Positions 2,323-38,556 of a stretch of DNA of 64,000 bases are shown one piece after another (the stretch's first letter is position 1; each line of letters opens with the position of its first letter). A model generated the notes under the pieces. The model was given only the letters and a program-made list of their open reading frames with translations. It was not told the origin of the DNA and made no database searches. Both the position numbers and the translations under genes were made by a program. The stretch covers positions 480,001 through 544,000 of the forward strand of contig CM000432.1 in the NCBI GenBank assembly GCA_000165345.1, written 5' to 3'.

Positions 2323-3111
2323 ATGATTAAGATAATATTTATTACGCTAATATGTTTGTTAATTAAGTAAGTTAATAATTTAATTTTCCGAGTATTTAAA
2401 CATGTTCTCATTTATAGGGATACTTTTGGTTTGGAAATGCGATCAATTGGAAATTCCAAACTTGAATCGTTTTCAGTTACTTATTCCGGAAATCTTCATA
2501 AGTTAAGTGCGCATTCAAGCTTGTTTTCGAACTCACAATTTGAGTCATGCAATACTATGTGCGATGATTTTGATCCAACATGCGACTGCAACACTGCTTC
2601 TACAACAGAAACAGAAATAACTATTGATCAAGTTGAGAGTTGGATTGAAATCATTAAAAAAAATGCTGAGGCTGCTGCAAACCCTATTTTAAAGAACGAT
2701 TCTACGTCAAACACTACAGAAACAACAGATTCTAGCAATCAATATGTATGGATTGGTATTGGTGTTGGAGCCATTGTTCTTATTGGATTAATTATATTCT
2801 TCATTACAAAGTCAAGATCTAATAACAGTCAGGGTCAAGATCCCAATGCAAACTATAATATGCAGGGAGGAGCCCCAGGAATGATGCCAGGTGGAATGCC
2901 TGGTATGCCCGGTATGCCTGGAATGCCAGGTGGAATGCCAGGTGGAATGCCTGGTATGCCCGGTGGAATGCCCGGTATGCCCGGAATGCCCGGAATGCCT
3001 GGAATGCCTGGAATGCCTGGTATGCCTGGAATGCCTGGTGGTATGCCTGGAATGCCAGGCGGAATGCCTGGTGGTATGCCTGGAATGCCTGGTGGAATGC
3101 CAATGCGATAG
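2323..3111 (+). CDS. Type-I membrane protein with Cys/Thr-rich ectodomain and (GMP/GGMP)n repeat cytoplasmic tail. Two exons: 2323..2366 and 2418..3111.
   Basis: The ORF track shows only 2431..3111. Upstream exon ATG 2323 encodes [15 protein letters not shown], a signal peptide. Donor AA|GTAAGT at 2367, acceptor TTTATAG| at 2417 (51-nt intron), in frame with ...[13 protein letters not shown]. The second exon has Cys-rich [15 protein letters not shown], a T/S-rich stretch, [24 protein letters not shown], then about 30 MPG/GMPG units. Confidence 0.55.
2866..3105 (+). repeat. In-frame coding tandem repeat of 9/12-nt units (GGAATGCCTGGTATGCCC etc.) encoding (GMP)/(GGMP)n
   Basis: Direct reading of 2866-3105. 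The alternative-frame ORFs 2819..3103(-) and 2891..3133(+) are artifacts of this repeat. Confidence 0.9.
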
Positions 3112-3252: not shown

Positions 3253-4332
3253 TTACTCCTTGTAGTTTAACTTGAAACTTAGTGCGCATTGAATAATATC
3301 ATTAATATTTATTGTATAAGGAGCTGTCTTCAAAGTATGCAAAATATTTTCAAATGACTGATTGAAAAGAGAGTTCTTCAAGATTTTCAAAATTGCAATG
3401 GAAATTTTGAAGATTAAGTCTACACCTTCAAGGAAAAACAGGTCCCAAATCCTCGCAACTGCATCCAAATTAAAACTGTAGGCAAATATAGTCATAAACC
3501 ATTGGGAAGCATACATAGTTTCATCCACATTTTCGTTTCTAAAGTGATTATAAAGATTTGGAATCCGTTTCTTAAATATTTTTCTTAACTTCTCTAAATG
3601 AGTATTTAATAATGGCAACCCTGGAAGATACAAGCCAGAAAATTTATACTTTCCAAGAATAGAAATTAGCATATAGAATGAATCCTCTTCTGACATGTAC
3701 ATTAACAGAACACCAACAATAAATCCCATTCCTTGGCAGTAACCAACATCCGGATTATATAGACTATAGGCCCTTAAAACTGAAAACAAAGAATTTTGCC
3801 CATGATTATTTTTATCACGAAATAAAGAATGTCTTGGAAAAGTTCTACTTATATCTCTATATATATCACCACAGCATGGGGCATTTTTTATTTCAGATAG
3901 TTGATAATATAGATTCTCGCTATGCTCGCTTTTTATATTTTCTACTTCTGCCAGCTTCATCCAAATGAATCCTCTAAATTGAGCTGGAATTCCCTTTCTC
4001 AGTTTACTCAATATTTTTAAATGATCTTTTTCTAAATCAAATTTCTCAAAATCGTAACATAAAAATCTCCACTCTTCAATTTCAATTAGTCTACTTCTGT
4101 AGTCAAATTTATGGGGAATTTTTATGTTTTCTGAGTTCTTACTTTGAATATCGCCGATATTTTCAGCATCTATAGTTTTATTTTCACATTCTGAGAACTT
4201 TGCTACATTATCATCATTTATTTCTGGGAACTCTTTAGAAATTTCATTATATCTCTCTTCAAAATCAGACATGTGTTCTCCTTCTACAAACTCCTTATTT
4301 TGAGAGGCTTTTTCCAAATCTTCTTTCGGCAT
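3253..4332 (-). CDS. TBC-domain Rab GTPase-activating protein
   Basis: 359-aa ORF with arginine-finger motif IYRDISRTFP and glutamine-finger VGYCQGMGFIVGVLL. These are the dual-finger TBC signatures. Confidence 0.8.
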   Translation of the reverse strand: MPKEDLEKASQNKEFVEGEHMSDFEERYNEISKEFPEINDDNVAKFSECENKTIDAENIGDIQSKNSENIKIPHKFDYRSRLIEIEEWRFLCYDFEKFDLEKDHLKILSKLRKGIPAQFRGFIWMKLAEVENIKSEHSENLYYQLSEIKNAPCCGDIYRDISRTFPRHSLFRDKNNHGQNSLFSVLRAYSLYNPDVGYCQGMGFIVGVLLMYMSEEDSFYMLISILGKYKFSGLYLPGLPLLNTHLEKLRKIFKKRIPNLYNHFRNENVDETMYASQWFMTIFAYSFNLDAVARIWDLFFLEGVDLIFKISIAILKILKNSLFNQSFENILHTLKTAPYTININDIIQCALSFKLNYKE

Positions 4333-6032: not shown

Positions 6033-6642
6033 TTCTTTGATACTAGCTTCCGGGATATGCCTCGTGTTAACCCTAAAATTATAATCTCAATATAGTTATA
6101 TGTTTCAATTCGTAAGTAATTTTACTTACAATAACTACAGATCTTACTTAATAAGTCTAATTTTTGAATATAAAATACATATTATTTTGATTGGTTGCTA
6201 ATAATAAATAATCAAGTCCAAAGATCGATAATTTAATCTTCTACCCAATTCTTCGATTTTCAATTATATTATTGTTATTCAGACAAATTCTTGAGAGTCC
6301 AAATAATTTTTGTTGAATTAACGGAATCTAAAATAAGACTTACAAAAAAATTTATTCTTTGACCGTTACCAAGCGCTACTCATTTTTACGTCTGTGTCAA
6401 TTCTGGAAGGCGGCCAATTACATGCAATATTTTATTTGTTCTAGATCAAGTTTGACAATTTTGTAAGAAAAAAAAACATGGGTTTTTAAAAGAGTAATTT
6501 AAAATATATCAAAAAGAATACATTTAAAAGCTATAATTGTTAGTTTATGAAATTGCTTTATTTGATATACTTCAAATCATTTAAAAGATTGTGAAAGTAT
6601 AAATAAATATTTACATCGTGCTAAAGCGATACATTTAAAAAA

Positions 6643-10067: not shown

Positions 10068-12249
10068 TTACCTTGAATAAATACTTCTCTTGTTTTTTCT
10101 ATTAAGTTTGTGGATTTTAAGATCATCTTTGTACGCCAGTACAACTGAATCGCTATTATTATAAAAGGTAGAACAATCCTCAACTCTACTTTCAACTTCT
10201 TTAATTGAATAAGAATATAGATTACCTCTTTTTACGGCTTCAAAGTCCCAAACTATAACAAAATTATCTATGCTTGTAACGATTTTAGTTTCCGCCCAAA
10301 ATCCTTCTGGCCCTTGGCATTGGTCAAATCTGGCAGGCGTGAAGTTAACTTCTGTAATTTTGTAATGAAACAAATCTTCGGGCTTTAAACGCAGTTTCCT
10401 GGATGGAGGTTTATTCCTCAGACTTGAAACAAATCCATTTCTACCTTCAGATCCAGAGTTTTCTTCTTGCTCAGTTACTGGATATAAGTGAATACAATTT
10501 TTTGTAGTTGCGAGAATCCAATTACCATTTCTAGTCACATCTACGGATATAATTGGAGACCCAAATGAATTAAGTAGTGTCTTTGCCTTTTTAAATTCTC
10601 CATCTTTGTTCATTGTACCATCATATAATCTTAGCTCTCCTAAGTCGTTGCCAATCAATATATGTCCATCTTTATCAGTTGCCATACTACTAAAAAGAAC
10701 ATTAGACCTATATATCTTTGAAGTAAATCTGTTGGAAGACTCCTTGATCCTACTATCCATTATAAACATTGCGCTGTTACTTAATCCCAAAAACGTTGGA
10801 ACTGGAGTGGATTGAGAATCTTTGCTTGACAGTCCTAAACAAGAAATTGGAAGTCCATTTGCATCCCAACGACGTAAAATTTTTTCATTTGTCAAATCCA
10901 TTTGATAAACATAATTAGGATCTGTTTCCGACAGAAACAACATTTGGGTTTCACAGTTGTGTAGTTGGCCTCCTACAGGAAGTACACTTTGATTTTCGAA
11001 TTCAATATTTTTAATTACAGAAATATTTCTTGCAGGAGTTCCACTAATATTATAATTGCTTCCTTCCGATTCTGTGTTTTTAAATACAGCAATTTCTGAC
11101 TTCCCATTACGCCTATTTGCCCTACCAACAAAAGTATTTTCATGTCCTATTAACATATATTTGTGATTCAAATACAATTCGTTATTTTTTGTTACTCTCC
11201 TAGGAGTTGAATAACATTCATTTTCTACTTCATCAGCTGAACAAGTGTGGTCACTTTCATTATCGCTGCATTCCCACATAATCTGATCTTTGCTGGGATT
11301 ATAGTTATCATCCAGGTCCATTTTATAACTCACTCCATAGTCTGAAACTTCGTTTTTAATGATTTCAGAAATACTTTTTCTTGGCCTTTTTTCTTCCGGA
11401 TTTACTTGATCTATGTGCTCTAAAAGTTTAGCAATAAATCCATCAATTTCTTCCTCTGAGCTATAGAAGGATTTGTTATCTTCGCCTTCATTCTGTATTC
11501 TTTTAAAATGAATTCGATATCTTTTTCTTATTTCGTCCTGATTAAACCCATAAAATTCAACAACTCTTTCACTTAATTTAGGCAAAAAAAGAATGTTATC
11601 CCCAATTATACTGGCAAACAGTACTTCGCCTTTTCCTGATAAATTCTTAATAGAAAAAATTGTGTCTTTGAAGTCTTTACTCGACAAAAGCTCGCAAATA
11701 GCATTTAGGCTTATTGGCTTCCATTCTTCAGCGTTAAAGCTCAAAATAGAATCTCTTTTCTTTTTAGTTATTGTATCATCGTGTTCATACAATTCTATTG
11801 GGATTTGATCTTTTATACTGCAGAGAGAACGAAGAGACAATGTTATATTATACGATAAGAATGAAAGAATATGTAGATCCATATTTTCAAACTCGAAAAC
11901 GAATTTTACCAAATCTTGTCCTGACCTCGTAATAATTATAAATTCACCCTGTTTATTACTATGAAAGTAATGTATATTCTTAAAATTGAATATATAATTT
12001 TCTTTTTGATCATCATTTGGATTTACACCGCTCATGATTATGTCATCTTCAATATTCATGCAGCAGGATTTAAGTACAAGCTGGTATGTCTTTCCGTTAC
12101 ATTTATACAGAGACCCTAAACAATAGTATTTAGTTCGTTTGATACTAGTTTAAACTGTCTAACTTACCATGATAGCTTTTACTAATTTTAGGGGAATCAC
12201 CAGCACTCGCAGAAAATCCAGTAAATATTCTTCGTATTAAACCACTCAT
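10068..12249 (-). CDS. VID27-like protein (PH-like N-terminus plus WD40-like C-terminus). Two exons: 10068..12115 and 12168..12249.
   Basis: Main ORF 10068..12059. Upstream exon ATG 12249..12247 encodes MSGLIRRIFTGFSASAGDSPKISKSYH. Donor G|GTAAGT, 52-nt intron 12116..12167, acceptor TTGTTTAG|GG, reading in frame into ...SLYKCNGKTYQLVLKSCCMNIEDD. C-terminal repeats resemble VID27. Confidence 0.55.
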
Positions 12250-12506
12250 ATGTATTCGTTGTTTTTGGCATTAAATTAATTTTCACTAAGATAATATTTT
12301 ATGCTCCAAGGAGATTAATTATTATTCTATTAACAATTTGCTATAAAATGTACCGAGGGCGGGGATAATTCATGTTTTTTTTAATTAGATCTCTTAGAAG
12401 TTCTCGAAAGTAACTGAAAGTGAATAATTAATTTTTATAAAATGAACTTAATTGGAATAGTTTAAATATTAGAAAAATAATAATTGTTTTGCGGGCAGAA
12501 AAAAAG

Positions 12507-12591
12507 TGCGTAGAATGGGATTCGAACCCATGAGAGCATACGCTCATTAGATCTTGAGTCTAACGCCTTAGACCAACTCGGCCATCCACGC
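12507..12591 (-). tRNA. tRNA-Leu (anticodon CAA), type II, intronless
   Basis: Minus-strand read GCGTGGATGGCCGAGTTGGTCTAAGGCGTTAGACTCAAGATCTAATGAGCGTATGCTCTCATGGGTTCGAATCCCATTCTACGCA. Acceptor stem pairs 7/7 (one G-U). D-arm GCCGAGTTGGTCTAAGGC, anticodon stem TTAGA/TCTAA with loop CTCAAGA, long variable arm, T-loop GGTTCGAATCC. Followed by TTTTTTT, a Pol III terminator, at 12499-12506. Confidence 0.8.
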
Positions 12592-12808: not shown

Positions 12809-13329
12809 TTAAATAAAGTCTCCATACCTGCCTCTTAATTGTCTAGCTAATCTTATATCTCTTGGTAGTAATGTAACTCTTTTGGAGTGCAATGTGCATA
12901 AATATGCATCCTCGAATAACCCTTGTAAAAATGCTTCTGCTGCGCATTGAATAGCATGCAAAGCCTCTGCATTCCATCTCCACATTTCGCCATGTGGCAC
13001 AAATTTTAATGTAACCTCTCTAACAACGCGAGCAAAAGGTAGTTTAGCAATAAGTAAATCAGTTGAGGCTTGATATTTTCTAATTTCTCTTAATGCAACC
13101 GTTCCTTAAATAAATATAATTTGAACACAGAATAAATTATTTAGCTTACCTGGTCTTCTTCTATATCTCCTTGGGCTAATGGGGCTACTACTAATTGCTC
13201 TATTATTCGTTGATTGGTGAAGAATAGGAGTCTAGAGAACTAATGAATATGTTGCATAAATGGAATTAATCAACTTACTTTTGACGGATATTTTGCAATT
13301 CGCTTGCTTGAAGTTTTAGAACGAGCCAT
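12809..13329 (-). CDS. Centromeric histone H3 variant (CenH3/CENP-A-like). Three exons: 12809..13104, 13150..13231 and 13279..13329.
   Basis: Exon 1 encodes [17 protein letters not shown] (H3-like tail), donor |GTAAGTTG. Exon 2 ...PRRYRRRPG. Exon 3 [30 protein letters not shown]...[37 protein letters not shown]. Introns are 47 and 45 nt. The histone fold is clearly H3. The divergent tail, 2-aa longer loop 1 ([13 protein letters not shown]) and C-terminal extension are CenH3 hallmarks. The ORF track only saw the last 63 aa. Confidence 0.7.
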
Positions 13330-13693
13330 AATCAATGAACCAATAGAAATTACTATTGAAGCCGTTAAAACAACGACTGCAATAGTAATAATTGTTAATT
13401 ATCAGCTCTAGACTAATTATTTAGTATTACTTGAAATATCTATTTATTAATTCCAGAAAAATATATCGTTTTCCAAATGAAGCCCGTTTCATGCATGAAT
13501 AATATCTTAATTAAACAACCAAAATATTCAAAAAAAATTATTCTTTTTAAGAAAGAAATTAAGTTTAATATCTAATTTTTTTTTATAAAAAAACTTTCAC
13601 ATGTATAAATTTATTTTATATTCTTTGCAAATTATTTGGCTTTGTCGTCTGTCCATCTAGTTAGTATATATTTCTTTTAAATGTGGGTAATGA

Positions 13694-13708
13694 TTTGGCG
13701 CTGGCGGC
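13694..13708. promoter_or_regulatory. Canonical E2F-type site TTTGGCGC followed by TGGCGGC, in the CenH3/ATG5 divergent intergenic region
   Basis: Direct read gatTTGGCGCtggcggcac. GC-rich islet in AT-rich DNA. Matches E2F consensus TTTSGCGC. Confidence 0.4.
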
Positions 13709-13745
13709 ACTGCTGCTTTTTTTTAAGCTTAAACTTCTAACATTT

Positions 13746-14718
13746 ATGTTAAAAATAATAGAAAGCAAATCACATGCTCTTACACACAAGATAATACACT
13801 CTGGCTTGTTGCTTATTTCAATAAGTATTGATCACGGAGAAGAAAGTAAATTCTCAAAGTGGAAATGTGCTCCTAAACTTTACTTTATTATCCCAAGAAT
13901 AGGTTATTTATTATCTTTGATTGACACTATTCAGGACTATTACGCTTCTATTGATAAGGAATTTTATAATTTAATTGAAAACACTTTCTCTTGGTTTGAG
14001 TACGATGGTTTGGTCATAAATAGGTAATTTATTTTTTAATAATTACATTAAATTGTATCCTTTCTAAGCCAATTCCCTGTAGGAATATTATTTGATAAGT
14101 ATCACAAAAGCAATGATAGCGTTTCATTCAACATTAAATTGGTTCTTCAATACAATAATAGTAATAAAAATAATCGGAAAGCTCCTTTTTTTTCTGAAGA
14201 AAACTCAGTATTTAATAATAACTTGATTAAGATTATTACAAATAACATTAAGCTATCTCAAACTGTAATGTTTGGAGATTGCAGAAAACTTCAAATGATG
14301 AATAAGAAAGATTACAATGAACTATTTGATTCTATATACTCTCTCTCCAAGACAACAGGTGAATACGAGAAGATAATTCATCGATTGTTCGGGTCAGCAA
14401 ATGAAATATATTTCAATACTAAGTAAGTTCTTCAGTATTTAAGCTTTAATAATTTAAAAAAAAAAAATTAGGAATATTCCGGTAAAAATTCACGTTAAGA
14501 ACGAATCATTTTTGAGATCATTCAAAAAAGATATTAACAATCAACTAATTGAAATAAAAGATATTCTAAACCATTTCAAATTTGAAACTAATGTGAGCTT
14601 AGATTCAAATAAAGTAATTTTTCATGGGGTCGCACTACCATTAAATACGCCATTAATATTTTTAACAATATTTTGCCCTTATATTGATGGGATTGTTCAA
14701 TTAGTTATTAAAGATTAA
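13746..14718 (+). CDS. ATG5: Autophagy protein ATG5. Three exons: 13746..14023, 14069..14422 and 14472..14718.
   Basis: Three track ORFs (13683.., 14139.., 14512..) are exons of one gene. PKLYFIIPRIGYL...SWFEYDG matches EPYYLLLPRVSYL...IWFEYEG. PVGILFD matches PIGLLFD. KNIPVKIHV matches FRYIPFRIY. VIFHGVALPLNTPL matches VMIHGIEPMLETPL. Donors AG|GTAATT and AA|GTAAGT, introns 45 and 49 nt. Start could instead be 13683. Confidence 0.75.
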
Positions 14719-14723
14719 TAATA

Positions 14724-15099
14724 TTAGCTTCCTATATTAGTGTTTGTAGAATTGTTTTCAGATGCGCCTCTCTGATCAAGCAATACATTATTAGGCATAA
14801 AGTAGATAGACATAAACCCCATAGTTAGGAACCCAATAAGTGTAATCGTTCTCTGGAAATCGCTATTGTTGGAGGTTGTTATACTTGAAAATATCAAGAC
14901 TACTGAAAGAAAGAATAACTGTTTTATCTGGAAAATTGCTGCTGAAAATCCAGTTATCATCCCTCCTATCAAAATCAACTCCGAAAGCAGAGTGGCTTTA
15001 GTTGCTAAAAATCAAGTAAAAATTATTAATCAAACACATTTTTGGCATACCTGATCTCAATATTTTAATGAAAGGTACGGACTTAGAATCATCTATCAT
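14724..15099 (-). CDS. Small 3-TM membrane protein (about 108 aa). Two exons: 14724..15004 and 15051..15099.
   Basis: Exon 1 ATG 15099 encodes MIDDSKSVPFIKILRS. Donor G|GTATGC, 46-nt intron, acceptor TTTTTAG|CA, reading into ...TKATLLSELILIGGMITGFSAAIF... (track ORF 14724..14978). Three hydrophobic helices. Family not recognised. Confidence 0.45.
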
Positions 15100-15184
15100 T
15101 TTAAAAATTTCTAATTAAAAAAAATAGCAATTTCCCTACATCCACTGTTGGCGCGTAAATATTCTTAGTCTAAATGATAGACAA

Positions 15185-18150
15185 CTACATAAATAAAAAC
15201 TTTTTATTATTCTCCTTCTGAACTGTTTTGATATTAATACTGTTCATGTTAATATCACTTAGATTTGGAATTGAATACTTATATTTCTGTGTTTTCCCTT
15301 TAAGAAAGTTTGAGATTCTATTATTAATATCGTTATAAATGAAGTAGTGTATAAAGCACGACTTATGTGCGGTAACAAACTTATCTCCAACTAGATTCTG
15401 GACGGAACTATTTCCTGATCCAATTGATGAACAATTTTCCTTAAAGGGCCTAAATTTAATTATTTGGTTCGAATTATTTAATACTCTTGTAGGGAACTTC
15501 CACTGAATAAAGCTTAACATTTTGTCGTTAATTTTTTCCTTAATGCTGTTTAATTTAGTAATACTTGCGTCTTGAGATGTATCAACCACAGCCAAGATTA
15601 AATTATGAGATGAGCTTTTCCTATTTTCATCTTCAAATGTATATTTAGTGGAACTTTGTGTGAGAGCTATTGCGTCAGTTGAAATCCAAGATTTATTAAT
15701 TGAGCACCATTTAATATTTAGTGATTCATGACAAATATCGCAAACCATATGTAAATGATCAACTGGAGTATAGGTAGTAATTACACTTTGTGTCATTTCA
15801 TTCCAAAGTGAAGACAAACTATTGCAAATGTCATCTACATCTTTAATTATTTTTCCATAAATATCGTTGTTCGTATCATTAGTGATTGTTACAAGTTTAT
15901 TTAATAACGATTCAAAATCAAAATTAGAAAAATTTTTTAAATAATTTATGTATTGAGCCAACAAGATATTTTTGGATACACCAATAGAAGATGAAACTTT
16001 AACAGTTGGATTAGAACTAGAATCAATTAAATTAACTTCAATTGAATTATCATTAATCCCTTTATGTTCTCTATTTGTTTCAGAAGCCATATGCTTTCCT
16101 GGCTTTCTTTTGAACAATGAGTTAAATAGATCATCAAAGCTGATATTCTTGTCACTAATTTGAGAAACTTCATTCGTGAAATCATTCGATTTCTCACCAA
16201 TTGAATTTCCTAATTTGTCATTATCGCTCATAAAATCCTTACTTTCACCAGAAATTTCGGGTGAGGTCTCACCTAATATATTTTTATCGGAACTGTAAAT
16301 CCAATCCTGAAGAGAAGGCCATAGAATTTGAAAGTTTGAACTTTGTTTTCTTTGTCTAAATATAAGATTTTTCGTTAGATGAATTTGAATATGCGATTCT
16401 TTCTTTTTGCTGTCAATAAATCTATAGCCACAAGTATGGCATTGATTCGGTCTCTCAGCATAATACATCGAAACATTTGCCTGCAAATTGAAATCATTTA
16501 TATTATCAATTATTCTTTTCCTAATGAAATGTGATTTTAACCAAACAGATCTTTTGAACTGAATTGAAGCGTCAACATTCTCTTGGAGTTTTTTGAATAA
16601 AAGTAGCAAATTACTTATTTCTTTAACTTGAAGGCCTTCCAAAAAAATACTTTGATCCCCTCTACCGTCTATAACGTATGAATCTATTCTCCTTAGATTA
16701 TCAGATTCTATTCTTGAATTACCACGAAATAGTTGATTCCAAACAGAAAACAAAATGGATGATGTACTATTTTCTAAAAATCTTGGTGAAAATGTTTTTT
16801 TAATATTACCAGCAATCCCTGATGTGCTTAATGTCGATGCAGAAGATATTGAAGATGATACCGTTGGAGACAACTGTTGTGGGGCGGTGCTAGAGTGAGG
16901 AATATTCATTTTTGATTGAGGCTGGGAAATAATTGGTTGTGCGGATAAAATACCAGATTGGTGTTTTTGATGTTGAATCTGTGCCTTGGATTGTACTACT
17001 GCAGCGGCAGCGGCCGCTGCTGCTGCTGCTGCTGCTGAGACTGATGGAGATACAACAGGATTTGAAGTTGCTGGTAGTTTAACAGATTGATTGGAAGACA
17101 TTTGAGGAGGAGAGACATGCTGCTGTAGAGAAGAAGGTATTCCGATCTGTTTTACAGATTGGGAATTTGAATGATTAAAGTGAGTTTGATTCATTGAATT
17201 AACCTCAGAGTTCCTATTTACTTTGTTAATTGTAATCTCTTGTTTTTGTCTTTTACTAACTGGAAGTTGATCATTTATAGGGTTAACATGTTTATGTTCA
17301 AAATTATTTGACTCTATATTCATTACCAAAGTGTCCATTAACTTTTGGGACTCTTGAATCTTCCCATAAGTGTTCAAGTATGCTATCTTATGTACAATAG
17401 GATCTGAAACCAACTTATTCAATAGAATATTACCTCCATCAGAGATGTTACACTTTTTTATAATTGTTCTTGAGATACTTGTATATATTTCGTTAAGTCT
17501 AGCAGCTTCCGTTCCTGCATGTGACGTTTCAGCTGTGTTTGTAGTAGTCCCGTTTATACCAACGCTAGAGCTGGGGGCTATATTACTTCCAGTGCTTAAA
17601 TTGGGGCTTGTTAATTTAGAAGATACGGAGTTTATGTTATTAACTTCTATTTCTATTGGTGGCTCATTCAATTTTGATCGCACACTATTAGTAGTGGAAA
17701 TAAGTTTTTGAACAATATCTTGAGGGAACGAATCACTCCATACTTTCAAAAGTTTTTCTAAGGAACGTAGTATTTGAGGTGATGTTTTTGTTGTGTAAGC
17801 TTCGGCAAAGTATGGTGCGATATAAGGCAAAAAATATGGAAAAAATATAGAACCCGATCGGCATTTGCGAACGATAGAGTCTACCAAACATAAAAGAACA
17901 TACTTCCTTGGAATATCTGACCTTGGAATCTCTTCTAAAATAACGCTTGCAATAATATGGGCATATTGTCGCTGATCTTCTGCAAGCAAAGTTAAATTCT
18001 GAATCATCTTTCCTGATCCTGCAGGCCCTCTTAAATTTCTTAGAACTTCAGCGTACCTTATTCGAACTAGTTTCTCTAAAATTAAATGAATAACGCAATG
18101 AGATTATACTTTCAATAGCTTTTCAACTTACCTGGACTAGAGCTATCCAT
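15185..18150 (-). CDS. CID/RPR-domain protein, PCF11-like, with zinc finger and poly-Ala tract. Two exons: 15185..18075 and 18132..18150.
   Basis: Track ORF 15185..18007. Upstream micro-exon ATGGATAGCTCTAGTCCAG (MDSSSP), donor |GTAAGT, 56-nt intron 18076..18131, acceptor TTTTAG|AG. The joined N-terminus EKLVRIRYAEVLRNLRGPAGSGKMIQNLTLLAEDQRQYAHIIASVILEEI...CLVDSIVRKC is a CID domain. Cys/His cluster CHTCGYRF...HIQIH. (GCN)12 poly-Ala at about 17010-17045. Confidence 0.6.
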
Positions 18151-18357
18151 CCTGATGGAAAATACAATGAACTCAAATTTTAAATCATAATATGTAAAAA
18201 CGGTCAAGAGGCAACTGTGGCCAGCAAAAGAAGTTATAGAATGCTTTAATATTGATTCTTAAATCTAAGAAAAGAATGTATTGATAAGGGCGATATTAAC
18301 AATTTGCATTCAATAAATAACTTATGTAACAGAATACGTAATTATTAATTTAAAAAA

Positions 18358-18381
18358 TAAAACCGCCTTGGCTTTTGCGCC
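18358..18381. promoter_or_regulatory. AAAACCGCC ... TTTTGCGCC paired GC-islets between the PCF11-like and XRCC3-like divergent genes
   Basis: Direct read aataaaaccgccttggcttttgcgccaatc. TTTTGCGCC is close to E2F TTTSGCGC. Confidence 0.35.
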
Positions 18382-18537
18382 AATCTCACTGCAATATCAA
18401 GTTTATTTAAAATTCATCACTTATGGTAAATAAAAATTATTACAAAATACCTAATTAATAATCCTGCCTATTGTGTGCAAGGCTTTACATAGTTCAGAAA
18501 ACACTTTTAATGCAATAATGTAATTTATATATATGAA

Positions 18538-19599
18538 ATGATTAAAGGAATTTCTGCATTAGAGCTATTACACCGTGAAACAGCATCTACAAATCGAATA
18601 AAAACTCTTTGTGGTACCCTTGATAAAATGCTTTGTATGTTTGAAAACAAACACTTTCCTATTGATTTCTTTTATTTTAAATAGGTGGAGGAATTATTAT
18701 TGGCAAAGGAATTATTGAATTATGCGGTGTTCCAGGAAGTGGAAAAACTCTCTTGTGCAAAATATTAGCTTTAAATATTCAAATCCCAAAAAGTATTGGT
18801 GGGCCAGGCTTGAATGCAATATATATAGGTAAGTCTGTTCTTATTTTCCATAGATCAATTTATTCCACTAAGATTCAGAAGGTGGTTTTAGTGATAATAG
18901 GCTAAGAGAAATCTCAAAAAGTACACTCAATTATATTAATGCGAAAAAAAAAACAGAAGATATGACCTGTGAGAATTTGATTAAAAACATTAAATATATA
19001 AGAATTTTTGATTTGGAAGAATTAATTAATGTATTAACTTTACTGCCTTCTGTAAGTTTAAAGCAAAGTTTTGAGTTATTTACCATTTTTACTAGATGTG
19101 CAAGAATAATAATATTGGCATAATAATAATAGATTCAATAAGTATGCTCATCCGTATTTGTAATTTAAGTAAGTATTGTGCTCATATTATTTTAAATACT
19201 TTATTTTTAGATAACCAACCGTATAGATTAAAAATGCAACAAAAGATTGCAAAAACTTTAGAAAACATGTCCAAAGAATACTCTCTTTCAATAATCGTCA
19301 CTAATCACATGACAAAAAAATATTTCGATGATCAAAAAAAAAAAGATCAATTCGCAAATGTTGCTACAGGAAAAAAAAATTTAGAGCCTTCTTTGGGCTT
19401 ATCTTGGAATTCACTGATTTGTGAAAGGCTAATTTTGAAACGTGAAAAGGATCTTAAGGCTGATAGTGAAGCTTTAAATACCATTTCCGTAACCAACAGT
19501 TTTGGTGAAGTTGCATTTTTTAAGGTAATTTATTCCTAAAATTAAAATAATATTAACTCTTGTCATTAGATCAATTTAAATGGGATTCAAGATTATTAA
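18538..19599 (+). CDS. Rad51 paralog, XRCC3-like. Six exons: 18538..18634, 18685..18828, 18873..19030 (or ..19052), 19096..19168, 19211..19524 and 19570..19599.
   Basis: Walker A GGIIIGKGIIELCGVPGSGKTLLCKILA. AIYI|DSEGGFSDNRLREI (compare YIDTEGTFRPERL). Walker B IGIIIIDSISMLIR. GLSWNSLICERLILKR matches XRCC3 GITWANQLLVRLLADR. Terminal exon INLNGIQDY matches Rad51 AITAGGIADAKD. Donors are mostly GTAAGT, introns 42-65 nt. The exon 3/4 junction is ambiguous (see findings). Confidence 0.6.
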
Positions 19600-25021: not shown

Positions 25022-25360
25022 ATGGCAAAAAAAAACGATAAGAATAAGAAAAAAAGATACATTGAGTGGTTGAAAGAAGTGGAGAAGGACAGTAGAAAAA
25101 GAGCAGAAGTGAATGCCATGAAAAGACAAAATATGAAAAGCAAAACTGAGAATATAATTAATGGCCAAAAAGATGTATGCATGAATATAGTTAAGGTAAA
25201 GAAGAAGAAGGTTAAATTAGACAGGAAAGGCCAAAAAAGACTAAATAAACTATCTGGTAAGTTTCTTTTTATTAATCTCTCTTGATTCAATCAAATTAAT
25301 TCGTGAATTAATGTCTAATTTTAAGGTATTAAGAAGAGTAATACCTCAATGGATTTATAA
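25022..25360 (+). CDS. Small basic (K/R-rich) protein, possibly nucleolar. Putative two exons: 25022..25256 and 25326..25360.
   Basis: Track ORF 25022..25285. A G|GTAAGT donor at 25257 and TTTTAAG| acceptor at 25325 would replace the C-terminus with GIKKSNTSMDL. Family not recognised, and the splice is speculative. Confidence 0.3.
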
Positions 25361-25734: not shown

Positions 25735-27069
25735 ATGAAGTCTGACAAGCCTTCGTATTCTGAAAAAAATGGTTTACCAAATATTTGCATGGTATCTGAC
25801 TTTTTTTATCCTGGTTTAGGCGGAGTTGAAATGCACATTTATGAATTATCTCAATGTTTGATGGTCCGTGGATATAAGGTTATTGTTGTTACTCACAGCA
25901 GGAATGATAGATATGGCGTTAGATATATGGGTATTGGCCTGAAAGTTTATTATTTGCCCTACAAAAGTATCTATGATAATGTTGTTTATCCTTCTTTATT
26001 TACCCTATTCCCTTTATTCAGGCAGATCCTTATCAGAGAAAAAATAGATATTGTTCATGGCCATCAATCAGTTTCAATGCTAGCACTAGAATGCTTATTT
26101 CATGCCACTACAATGGGATACAGAGTGGTATTTACTGATCATTCATTATTTGGACTTTCAAATTATGATTCAATTCACGCGAATAATTTTTTTAGGATAA
26201 ATTTATCCTGTATTGACAATGTGATTTGTGTTTCACACACAAACAAGAAAAATTTGATATATAGATCATTAATTTCTCCAAAAAATGTCACTGTAATACC
26301 AAATGCAATAGATAGCAATGATTTTTTACCCAATCCAAATTACAAGTCTCCAATAAATAATGAAGTCATTGTTATTTCAATTTGCAGAATGACTTATAGG
26401 AAGGGCGTTGATCTACTTGTCGAAATAATTCCAAGAATATGCAACAGCGACCCGAATGTAAGATTCATACTAGGAGGAGACGGCCCAAAAAAACATTTAT
26501 TACATGAAATGTGTAAAAAGTACAATCTTTCGAATAGAGTTGAACTTCTTGGTTCTGTTCCTCACACACAAGTTTGTCGAGTTTTGCAAAGAGGACATAT
26601 TTTTTTAAATACATCTTTGACGGAAGCGTTTGGAATCAGTATTATTGAGGCAGCATCATGTGGTCTGCTTGTTGTTTCTTCAAATGTAGGAGGTATTCCC
26701 GAAATTCTTCCTCAAGAATTCCTTAGGCTTTCAAACCCTTCTATTTCAAATATGGTGAACGAGCTTAAAATTGCAGTAAATATTATTAGAGAAGGAAAAT
26801 TTGATCCATATTCATCACATAAGAAAATCTCAGCAATGTATTCATGGCATGACATTGCAAAGAGGACAGTTTCTGTATATCAGAAGTCGAATCAAGTTGA
26901 TATTATTGGTACTAAGGAAAGAATATTACGTATATATAAGACAGGGAATTTAATAGGAAAGATATTTGCTCTAATAGCAGCGCTAGATTATTTTATTTGG
27001 TTCTTTCTAGAGTTTTTCTACCCAAAAGAATCAATCGAGCATTGCATCGATTTTCCTGGAATCTCTTAG
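25735..27069 (+). CDS. PIGA: GPI-anchor GlcNAc transferase catalytic subunit PIG-A/GPI3
   Basis: [26 protein letters not shown]...GLKVYYLP...VFTDHSLFG...[10 protein letters not shown]...[15 protein letters not shown] is nearly collinear with human PIG-A ([26 protein letters not shown]...). Confidence 0.9.
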   Translation: [444 protein letters not shown]

Positions 27070-27174
27070 ATTTAATATCTTGTATATTAATGTTAAGTAT
27101 TATCAAAATTTTTCTATTTCTCTCCACAAATATTCAGCGTTGCTAACTTTGTCTAAGAGCTTTATTTATTTAGC

Positions 27175-27812
27175 TTATTTATAATTTGGAAACTTACTGT
27201 TTTCATGAATTTGTAGTTGAAATGTCTCGGTTTTTGTCGGGTAATTTACTGGAATAAAGTGGCCTTGTATAAAAGATTCGGAAATCAATGACCAAGTTAT
27301 CATAGAAATACTCTGATACATTTTTTTTTTTGCATACAACACATCCTCTGAATCTCTCATCGATTTTAATAGATTCTTCTTTTTTTCTAATAATAATGCA
27401 TACCTACTATGAACACTTGACAATTCTTTCTCGATCTCCTCACATTTTGATGACATCAAGGCACTGCGTTTATTGTCTTCTTTAAAATTGTTGTAAATTT
27501 CATTACCACTATTATTACATATATTTTCTCCATTTTCAAGTTCCTCTAAGTAGCTATTTTCTATTGATTTGATATCTAGAAGAATATATTTAGTAAATTA
27601 TTGTAAATAAATAATGTATTAAACTAACCATCAATTAGCATCTGCAGCTTGTCATAAGTAGATTTAATATAATTTTCTAGCTCAGCAATTTCATTTTGGA
27701 TCTGAGATAGAACATCTGTTTCGCCCCCTAAATGTTCATAAATACCAGCTATTTCCTGTGTTAACAGTATTATCTCTTTAATATTTTCATTAAATTGAGG
27801 CGAAATAGACAT
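27175..27812 (-). CDS. Coiled-coil protein, about 195 aa. Two exons: 27175..27575 and 27629..27812 (start alternatively 27905).
   Basis: Track ORFs 27624..27905 and 27175..27459 join via donor G|GTTAGT at 27628 and acceptor TTCTTCTAG| at 27576 (53-nt intron), in frame: ...KLQMLIDDIKSIENSYLEELENG...MMSSKCEEIEK.... Heptad-like N-terminal half with a globular C-terminal half, a kinetochore Spc24/Spc25-like architecture. This is speculative. Confidence 0.4.
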
Positions 27813-28102
27813 TTTTCTAACTCCTCTCCCAACCCTATTTCTATCTTGAATTGATTCAAACATTAAAAGAATTAAAATAAATTGATTTTTTGCTTGAAAC
27901 CTCAATATGAATTTCTGATTTCAAAGAATCAAGTTGATTCTTTTGTATTTCAATATTTAAAAAATAATTCTATCCACTTAAAAAACTACGCCCGCATATC
28001 GATTTTATTTGTCATTTGCATGTAAAGTAAACTTACAAATAAGGACACAAAAAATAAATATATGAAATTATTTAAGAATTAATAGCAATATTGAAAGTAA
28101 TA

Positions 28103-37340: not shown

Positions 37341-37553
37341 TTAGCAAATCGATTAAACGATAATAAATCAAATTGGTTGAAAAAATAATTATAGCTTTAA
37401 GAAATTATTCATAAAATTTGAGTATAAATTATCTTTGGCTTGAAGAAATTTAATCATATATAGTTAATTGTAAAAAACTACTTTATTTCTAATTAATTTT
37501 TGGCTTAACAGATATTTCGAACCTGTTGGAATGACTACAGATAATGTATTTAA

Positions 37554-38556
37554 TCAATGCATGTCTTCATTTAATGGAAAATTTGAAGAAAACAACTTAC
37601 CATTTTGTTGAGGTCTATTAAAATTTATTTTCTGTTGATTATTATTTAATTCGAGTTCCCCCCAATTTACTGAATACCCATCTTTTTCTATAATTTCACT
37701 TGCTGTTGACCAAGAGAATCGGACAATATTTGGAAATCCAAATACAGGGTCAAAAACACGCCTAAGAAAATCTTTTGTTTTTGGATCGCCTGGATATCCA
37801 CTACCTTGTTCATAGTTACTAATTTTATTACCGTTAAAATCACAGCTCTCAACGGATGCTTGCGTCCACCAATTTGACAAAAAATCGTCTCTTTTAACCT
37901 TTGCCAAAATAGATGCGCCACTTACAGAAGGAAATAGTGCATCAGCTTTTGGCTTTACTGTAATATTAATGCCTGGGAAAATATTCATCAGTTTACTTCT
38001 ATAAGTATCTGGTGGCCCAACTGTATCTATGTAAACTTCTTTAACTTTAACTCCACAGTTAATTATGTACTTTATTAAATCTAAAAATATAAGAATAAAT
38101 AATTAATCAAAGCAAACTTACTAATTGCTGCTGAATGCGATATCTCATTCAAATTGTTTTTTTTTCTACAACAAATTATAATTAAAATGAAATTCTTTTT
38201 GAAAAACTTACTTCCTTTGCATTTCACAGCTTAAATATTCGGGCGACATGATATGAATCCTCCAGCCAAATTTGTCTTTTAAACTTCTTATTTTGTCGTT
38301 AATTTTATCTCTATTTTGAGATGATAATCTTTTGGAATCTTAATGAGCAATTAAAGTTGTTTGAACAAGAATTAAATTTATCTAACAACTTACCATCAAC
38401 GCTGATCATTTTTAATAAATCTTCATTCTCTCTAGGGTAAAATAGGCATGCATATACCATTGGGCCCAATACAGGACCTCTACCAGCTTCATCAATACCC
38501 AATATAACTTCCTTATGCTCAAATCTGTGAATATTCTCCTCAAATATGTGTTCCAT
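37554..38556 (-). CDS. RNASEH2A: Ribonuclease H2 catalytic subunit A (RNASEH2A/RNH201). Four exons: 37554..38080, 38122..38165, 38212..38338 and 38394..38556.
   Basis: [20 protein letters not shown]. Exon 2 [26 protein letters not shown] matches human DSKTLLESERERLF...DFVGW. Exon 3 [14 protein letters not shown]. Exon 4 [62 protein letters not shown]...[14 protein letters not shown]...[12 protein letters not shown] is collinear with human RNASEH2A. Introns 55, 46 and 41 nt, all GTAAGT donors. Upstream of Met 38556 the track ORF extends to 38739 but looks non-coding. Confidence 0.8.

Follow-up and report, generated by a model that had tools for sequence, protein, structure and literature searches.

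The stretch of DNA considered here raises the question of whether genes that appear truncated, split or absent in calls based on open reading frames (ORFs) are intact genes interrupted by very short introns. The window, by which we mean the whole stretch of 64,000 nucleotides (nt) that was analysed (contig CM000432.1 of GCA_000165345.1, positions 480,001 to 544,000), is the cgd4_20xx-21xx region of Cryptosporidium parvum chromosome 4. It is 100% identical to CP029783.1 of GCA_031892065.1 over 21.3 kb and to CP044419.1 of the IOWA-ATCC assembly GCA_015245375.1 over 14.3 kb, and its proteins carry gene tags such as CPHLJ_4g2034 and cpbgf_4002093 in the records. Exact matches to several of its single-exon products (ribosomal protein P0, a cyclin, a RabGAP and a 776-residue protein) lie on 1.1-Mb chromosomes in four C. 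parvum assemblies. The window has a GC content of ~30%, is gene-dense with many long single ORFs, and holds ~35 protein-coding genes, ten of which bear introns. In these ten genes we rebuilt 20 GT..AG introns of 41-69 nt and, from sequence comparison, consider it very probable (about 0.96) that they are canonical U2-type GT-AG spliceosomal introns of a compact, AT-rich apicomplexan genome.

Gene models were built by taking deposited ranges and product lengths as a start and enumerating the GT..AG deletions that give an open frame from ATG to stop. The resulting genes are given below in order along the window, each followed by its introns, with product lengths in amino acids (aa).

2323..3111 (+): protein with a signal peptide/transmembrane (TM) segment and a C-terminal GMP repeat, 245 aa, 2 exons; the single solution for the deposited range and length.
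2367..2417 (+): GMP gene intron, 51 nt, GTAAGT..TAG, after a 44-nt signal-peptide exon; in-frame stop if retained.
10068..12249 (-): VID27-related protein, 709 aa, 2 exons; spliced product identical to QOY42242.1.
12116..12167 (-): VID27 intron, 52 nt, GTAAGT..TAG, after an 82-nt first exon; frameshift if retained.
12809..13329 (-): centromeric histone H3 (CenH3), 142 aa, 3 exons; spliced product identical to QOY42241.1.
13232..13278 (-): CenH3 intron 1, 47 nt, GTAAGT..TAG, after a 51-nt first exon.
13105..13149 (-): CenH3 intron 2, 45 nt, GTAAGC..AAG, in the codon after 'RRRP' within a conserved H3 motif; conserved across species.
13746..14718 (+): ATG5, 292 aa, 3 exons; spliced product identical to QOY42240.1.
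14024..14068 (+): ATG5 intron 1, 45 nt, GTAATT..AAG; junction at codon 93, within one UblA match.
14423..14471 (+): ATG5 intron 2, 49 nt, GTAAGT..TAG; placed by frame and cross-species conservation.
14724..15099 (-): small membrane protein (TM protein), 109 aa, 2 exons; spliced product identical to QOY42239.1.
15005..15050 (-): TM-protein intron, 46 nt, GTATGC..TAG, after a 49-nt first exon; frameshift if retained.
15185..18150 (-): PCF11-like CID-domain protein, 969 aa, 2 exons; same length and range in deposited records.
18076..18131 (-): PCF11-like intron, 56 nt, GTAAGT..TAG, after a 19-nt first exon (MDSSSP); unique solution.
18538..19599 (+): RAD51 paralogue (RAD51C-like), 278 aa, 6 exons; spliced product identical to QOY42237.1 and WRK31788.1.
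18635..18684 (+): RAD51C intron 1, 50 nt, GTATGT..TAG; codon 33 junction inside an unbroken human RAD51C alignment, kept in five species.
18829..18872 (+): RAD51C intron 2, 44 nt, GTAAGT..AAG; kept in five species.
19052..19095 (+): RAD51C intron 3, 44 nt, GTAAGT..TAG; placed by RAD51C homology and cross-species conservation.
19169..19210 (+): RAD51C intron 4, 42 nt, GTAAGT..TAG; removal gives a gap-free RAD51C alignment.
19525..19569 (+): RAD51C intron 5, 45 nt, GTAATT..TAG, before a 30-nt last exon; kept in five species.
25022..25360 (+): small basic protein, 89 aa, 2 exons; spliced product identical to QOY42233.1.
25257..25325 (+): small basic protein intron, 69 nt, GTAAGT..AAG; in-frame stop if retained, kept in three species at 62-75 nt.
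27103..27863 (-): coiled-coil protein, 220 aa from an upstream ATG, 3 exons; range and length as in the 220-aa CpBGF model.
27576..27628 (-): coiled-coil intron 1, 53 nt, GTTAGT..TAG; placed by frame and cross-species comparison.
27153..27197 (-): coiled-coil intron 2, 45 nt, GTAAGT..TAG; kept in four species together with the downstream exon.
37464..38556 (-): RNase H2 subunit A (RNase H2A), 294 aa, 5 exons; spliced product identical to QOY42225.1.
38339..38393 (-): RNase H2A intron 1, 55 nt, GTAAGT..AAG; codon 55 junction in an unbroken alignment, kept in C. ubiquitum and C. felis.
38166..38211 (-): RNase H2A intron 2, 46 nt, GTAAGT..TAG; placed by mouse homology and conservation in other species.
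38081..38121 (-): RNase H2A intron 3, 41 nt, the shortest of the 20, GTAAGT..TAG; placed by mouse homology and conservation in other species.
37535..37600 (-): RNase H2A intron 4, 66 nt, GTAAGT..TAG; donor, acceptor and last exon kept in C. ubiquitum and C. felis.

As a set, the introns are very uniform. Their lengths are 41, 42, 44, 44, 45, 45, 45, 45, 46, 46, 47, 49, 50, 51, 52, 53, 55, 56, 66 and 69 nt, their GC content is 15-30%, and all 20 begin with GT and end with AG. The donor is GTAAGT in 14 cases and GTAATT in two, with GTAAGC, GTATGC, GTATGT and GTTAGT used once each, so that A, A, G and T occupy positions +3 to +6 in 19, 18, 18 and 18 of the 20 introns, respectively. Fifteen acceptors are TAG and five are AAG, with a T-rich tract from about -10 to -3. 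The donor consensus G/GTAAGTT would pair with the 5' end of U1 small nuclear RNA, of which it is the perfect complement according to established splicing knowledge, and the 3' splice site would be marked by the T-rich tract plus TAG or AAG. Removal of the segments would then join the exons into frames for CenH3, ATG5, the PCF11-like CID protein, the RAD51C-like protein, VID27, RNase H2A and four small or lineage-specific proteins. Their loss from the mRNA would accord with the literature on the annotations that hold these junctions, from which we take this step.

An earlier note, written from the letters of this DNA, had proposed much of this. The intron length range it gave, 41-69 nt, is exactly the one found, and the GTAAGT, GTAATT and GTATGC donors and (T)nAG acceptors it described are all seen, alongside the three further donors. 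Its first micro-exons of 19-51 nt are likewise present, in the PCF11-like (19 nt), GMP (44 nt), TM-protein (49 nt) and CenH3 (51 nt) genes; small last exons occur as well, in the RAD51 paralogue (30 nt), the 89-aa protein (35 nt) and the coiled-coil gene (50 nt). The note had counted at least 11 such genes; all ten that it named bear introns, and no eleventh was found. Its per-gene counts accounted for 18 of the 20 introns, the coiled-coil gene having two instead of one and RNase H2A four instead of three. The interval it gave for the phenomenon, 13683-19599, contains only four of the genes (ATG5, the TM protein, the PCF11-like gene and the RAD51 paralogue) and begins at the GTG of a spurious ORF call, the real ATG5 start being at 13746.

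How strong is the case that these segments are introns, as opposed to sequencing or assembly errors or decaying pseudogenes in which GT..AG is coincidental? The motif alone is not evidence, because GTAAGT is not enriched and a motif scan is unspecific. There are 32 copies of GTAAGT in the window against a median of 35 for hexamers of the same composition, and 14 of the 32 are donors. When the window was scanned by motif only (donor set, length of 38-79 nt, Y-rich tail and low GC), 18 of the 125 candidates were real introns, 33 fell within sense coding sequence and 40 were antisense; the rescan by length and GTAAGT..YAG that the earlier note had recommended as a remedy is therefore too unspecific to be used by itself. 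This abundance of chance matches is what speaks for coincidence. Against it stand the behaviour of the reading frame, homology to known proteins and the comparison with other species.

Retention of the segment stops or shifts the frame for 19 of the 20 introns, the exception being the 42-nt RAD51C intron 4, which is open in frame. The junctions were also examined for broken homology, as the note had suggested, and homology to RNase H2A, RAD51C, histone H3 and ATG5 runs unbroken through them. Mouse RNase H2A aligns gap-free over the junctions at codons 55, 97 and 112, human RAD51C aligns over those at codons 33, 81, 140 and 165, and the Histone, ATG5 UblA and CID matches are each one continuous stretch. 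In this way homology directly spans ~10 junctions; the others are in non-conserved termini and rest on cross-species evidence. The spliced products retain motifs such as DEAGRG, the Walker A sequence GVPGSGKT and the H3 αN region.

For the cross-species evidence, syntenic loci of C. felis, C. ryanae, C. ubiquitum, C. meleagridis, chipmunk genotype I and C. canis were compared. For 15 of 15 introns, GT and AG are found at the aligned positions in every species aligned (up to five), compared with 19 of 547 decoys (3.5%), which were exonic GT..AG pairs of the same spacing. Beyond these 15, the four RNase H2A introns and the GMP intron are also kept in the species available. In the three closest species, all 22 exonic indels are multiples of 3, as opposed to 4 of 42 in introns. 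Orthologous introns measure 42-75 nt and differ in length by a number that is not a multiple of 3 in 49 of 71 comparisons, and identity is lower in introns than in exons in all five species comparisons. Taken together, frame restoration, unbroken homology, cross-species conservation and the indel pattern put the introns beyond chance. Since the same sequence is also present in several independent assemblies, long-read and telomere-to-telomere (T2T) ones included, six further species have the segments in the same places, GT and AG included, the exons carry in-frame indels only, and the spliced products keep catalytic and structural motifs, we regard error or pseudogene decay as effectively refuted.

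The individual genes bear this out. The VID27 intron keeps its GT..AG in five other species (48-56 nt). CenH3 gives one Pfam Histone match over residues 15-135, across both junctions; for its first intron, which is kept in five species at 45-61 nt, only the 47-nt solution keeps the frame into the following protein motif, and a 41-nt alternative ending at acceptor CATTAG was rejected because it breaks the frame. In ATG5, Pfam matches cover UblA (residues 19-117), HBR (148-199) and UblB (212-290). ATG5 intron 1 is kept in five species (43-56 nt), and UblB starts at profile position 1 directly after the intron 2 junction. The PCF11-like micro-exon and the GT..AG that follows it are kept in five species (52-60 nt), and the CID match begins at residue 27, before the long ORF has its first ATG (residue 30).

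Residues 22-88 of the TM protein align weakly to profile positions 25-92 of 96 of Pfam Asterix (PF03669, a PAT complex subunit; E = 3e-4, with a score just under the curated cut-off). The TM-protein intron is kept in five species at 46-54 nt. A 988-nt contig from the Logan assemblies (P0031) carries an orthologue of this protein for which a 124-aa ORF call reads through the intron, leaving a 15-residue insertion that joins the exons; in the isolate or species concerned the intron appears to be 45 nt long and stop-free. For the GMP gene, the GTAAGT donor, the TAG acceptor and the signal-peptide exon are kept at the same position in C. canis, and the deposits give 245 aa over the same range in IOWA-ATCC and an intron-less 224-aa model in GCA_048859185.1. 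A GMP-repeat orthologue from a related Cryptosporidium genome in Logan (P0184) has a 269-aa ORF call with a far-upstream start that reads through the intron region; its signal peptide is swapped for an unrelated N-terminus, another mis-start by an ORF caller.

The five-intron gene had been labelled XRCC3-like in the earlier note, a label that does not hold up well. Among solved structures, RAD51C chains match with E = 1.5e-28 to 6e-25 and XRCC3 chains with 3e-19 to 1.5e-14, and the protein resembles RAD51C in its RecA/Rad51 core, Walker A GVPGSGKT and IDSEGGF, its UniRef name being RAD51 homolog 3. Judged by these matches, it is closer to RAD51C than to XRCC3. It differs from human RAD51C in being without the ~75-residue N-terminal domain, the alignment starting at RAD51C residue 76. 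The splice at intron 2 itself creates AIYIDSEGGF, aligned to AVFIDTEGSF of RAD51C. A 50-nt version of this intron with acceptor TTCAG was rejected; it loses the conserved D-S of IDSEGGF, and the summed lengths fit the deposited products only with 44 nt. Orthologues of the open-in-frame intron 4 have lengths not divisible by 3, namely 49 nt in C. ryanae and 43 nt in C. ubiquitum.

RNase H2A matches mouse RNase H2A (3kio_A) over residues 17-260 with E = 2e-67. Only with introns 1-3 spliced out does the model contain the RNase HII fold motifs DEAGRG, DSK and DTVG in full, and the C-terminal motif of other eukaryotes appears only once intron 4 is removed. The deposited models of this gene differ in length, at 229, 294 and 313 aa. 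The 229-aa product, found in GCA_031892065.1, GCA_048859185.1 and a C. hominis assembly, comes from taking 38081-38393 as one 313-nt 'intron', so that exons 2 and 3 are passed over and 57 conserved residues are lost; on the alignments, the 294-aa IOWA-ATCC product is the model that homology supports. In C. ubiquitum, C. felis, C. canis and the chipmunk genotype, the deposited RNase H2A models (P0064, P0065, P0067 and P0070) end in short peptides that start with xK, e.g. CKLFIF and GKYLRC. Such ends suggest that the models run on through the conserved GTAAGT donor of the last intron, and the conserved final exon is present in C. ubiquitum DNA (L020, about 3900-4100).

Agreement with deposited annotations is close overall. 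Seven of the ten hand-spliced proteins are identical to C. parvum IOWA-ATCC deposits (the QOY accessions listed above), the other three (GMP, PCF11-like and coiled-coil) agree in range and product length with deposited models, and each of the 20 introns can be found in IOWA-ATCC, CpBGF or both.

Several observations weigh against the interpretation of all 20 segments as spliceosomal introns with the boundaries given here. The GMP protein (245 aa), the PCF11-like protein (969 aa) and the 203-aa version of the coiled-coil protein, which starts from a downstream ATG, have no exact entry in the protein collection. YTRAY-like sites at plausible distances are missing from 7 of the 20 introns, and the set does not yield a clear branch-point motif. 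No Logan source is listed for any of the full-length spliced proteins, and no contig of the complementary DNA (cDNA) type was found; the 124-aa Logan protein was considered as cDNA evidence and rejected, as it is an intron read-through. The acceptor of coiled-coil intron 1 is ambiguous, some records placing it 15 nt further on, which gives a 68-nt intron and a 189-aa product. Finally, RAD51C intron 5, RNase H2A intron 4 and the GMP intron are each missing from at least one deposited annotation.

A milder alternative is that the introns are real as a class and at least one of the 20 junctions differs in the dominant mRNA through an alternative acceptor, retention or alternative splicing, so that some models are slightly wrong. 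The deposits do disagree with one another, not only for RNase H2A and the GMP protein but also for the coiled-coil protein (189 aa with the 68-nt intron against 220 aa with introns of 53 and 45 nt) and the RAD51 paralogue (273 or 278 aa); RAD51C intron 4 is open in frame; and the Logan call for a variant of the locus reads straight through the TM-protein intron. On the other hand, comparative and homology evidence favours the present models at every contested site. The 229-aa RNase H2A, with its loss of conserved residues, is one example; for the coiled-coil gene the cross-species data favour two introns (53 and 45 nt), and models in other species are 219-221 aa long. We consider a wrong junction somewhere in the set unlikely, with a chance that is far from negligible, and retain the 20 canonical introns as modelled.

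Because many of these exons are so small (19-51 nt for 5'-terminal ones, 30-50 nt for 3'-terminal ones), callers that work with single ORFs truncate, split or miss the genes, as the earlier note had foreseen. We judged this on prokaryote-style calls on a Logan assembly of the same DNA, and it is visible there as well as in the annotations of 2004. In Logan, the 709-aa VID27 is reduced to a 663-aa call with a separate 34-aa scrap, ATG5 to a 114-aa fragment from the GTG at 13683, the 969-aa PCF11-like protein to 940 aa and the RAD51 paralogue to pieces of 48 aa and 147 aa; CenH3 and the TM protein receive no call. The 2004 annotations give a 98-aa 'partial' CenH3 (XP_625797), the same 663-aa VID27 (XP_625796), an ATG5 of 93 aa (XP_667859) and a TM protein of 78 aa (XP_667858).

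Could these be previously unrecognised genes or introns, and hence a real gap in knowledge? Some current records would seem to suggest so. GCA_031892065.1, identical to the window, is still without RAD51C intron 5 and has a mis-modelled RNase H2A, and several orthologue models of other species run into the last RNase H2A intron. In detail, GCA_031892065.1 has a 189-aa coiled-coil protein with a 68-nt intron and a 273-aa RAD51 paralogue; RAD51C intron 5 is in the IOWA-ATCC and CpBGF models (278 aa) and absent from the 273-aa models of both GCA_031892065.1 and GCA_048859185.1. Compared with IOWA-ATCC and CpBGF, these two assemblies have poorer models for RNase H2A, the RAD51 paralogue and the coiled-coil protein, and GCA_048859185.1 alone has a poorer one for the GMP protein. 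Against novelty, all 20 introns are already in IOWA-ATCC or CpBGF, and intron under-calling in C. parvum has been published repeatedly (PMC4637869, PMC8744675), which makes a genuine gap very improbable. RNA sequencing (RNA-seq) by Isaza et al. in 2015 raised the fraction of intron-bearing C. parvum genes from 4.3% to 10.8% and the number of introns from 237 to 688, an addition of 451 (PMC4637869). The IOWA-ATCC re-annotation by Baptista et al. (2022) introduced 1926 annotation changes, with N termini repaired in >500 genes, and states 100% RNA-seq support for its annotated introns (PMC8744675), and the CpBGF T2T annotation of 2025 was curated with Iso-Seq (PMC12179316). Intron under-calling in C. 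parvum is thus already known and was fixed in the re-annotations of 2015, 2022 and 2025. Those studies concern the same organism, chromosome and genes, with the seven spliced products identical, and reached the same conclusion, that the original ORF-centred annotation under-called introns and mis-started genes; there is no substantive difference from ours.

The 20 canonical introns resemble the short-intron class of compact eukaryotes in their GT..AG ends, GTAAGT consensus, AT-rich interior, narrow near-minimum lengths, use of all three phases and absence of a modulo-3 constraint. Ciliate and nucleomorph introns, at ~15-30 nt, are much shorter than the present ones, so that 'ultra-short' overstates introns of 41-69 nt. 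With a median of 46 nt, they are in turn below the mean of 99 bp published for C. parvum introns (PMC4637869). The same study reports a GC content of 22% for introns and ~32% for exons.

The distribution of the introns raises a further point. Six neighbouring genes in a row between 10068 and 19599 (VID27, CenH3, ATG5, TM protein, PCF11-like and RAD51C) bear introns, and ten of the ~35 genes in the window do so, compared with 10.8% genome-wide in the published count (PMC4637869). For C. proliferans, 28% intron-bearing genes are given in a 2026 paper (PMC13125899). Under independence the six-gene run is unusual if the true fraction is <= ~15% and not if it is >= 20%, and the window may have been chosen for this feature. 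A joint reading, in which intron-bearing genes are locally clustered and terminal micro-exons are systematically mis-annotated across deposited Cryptosporidium genomes, is speculative and on balance rather improbable. Its first part might reflect regionally uneven intron loss; its second part draws on the last RNase H2A exon in four species, the 229-aa RNase H2A of three assemblies and two C. parvum records that are without the last RAD51C exon.

Elsewhere in the window, two possible additional introns were considered. One upstream of ThiF (769-836) was rejected as a coding-exon junction, there being no ATG in the 39 nt at hand. Another upstream of Nop52 (6073-6129, minus strand) offers no usable coding exon, as the sole upstream ATG meets a stop after 7 codons; this 57-nt GTAAGT..TTTTAG segment lies 41 nt upstream of the Nop52 start codon and may be an intron in the 5' untranslated region or a chance match. 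A tRNA-Leu gene (anticodon CAA; 12506-12591, minus strand) lies between VID27 and CenH3, and Rfam and ARAGORN scans of the window found nothing besides this one gene. Lastly, at the PIGA gene (~26149-27052), encoding the glycosylphosphatidylinositol N-acetylglucosamine transferase, the CpBGF T2T assembly (GCA_035232765.1) is without ~0.9 kb that the window and three other C. parvum assemblies have, and its PIGA product is 138 aa long as opposed to 444 aa. This gap could be an assembly artefact or a genuine deletion.

For the biology of Cryptosporidium the analysis provides no new insight, as the community re-annotations hold these gene models. Its value is rather that of a quality check, in which a reading of the raw sequence recovered 18 of the 20 introns and the right proteins, and of an illustration of how poorly ORF-only calling performs on compact eukaryotic genomes, where ATG5 and a RAD51 paralogue come out in fragments and CenH3 and a membrane protein are not called at all. 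In practical terms, the records for RNase H2A, the RAD51 paralogue, the coiled-coil protein and the GMP protein could be harmonised with IOWA-ATCC or CpBGF. If terminal micro-exons should prove to be mis-annotated across the deposited genomes of the genus, a comparative clean-up would alter many gene models.

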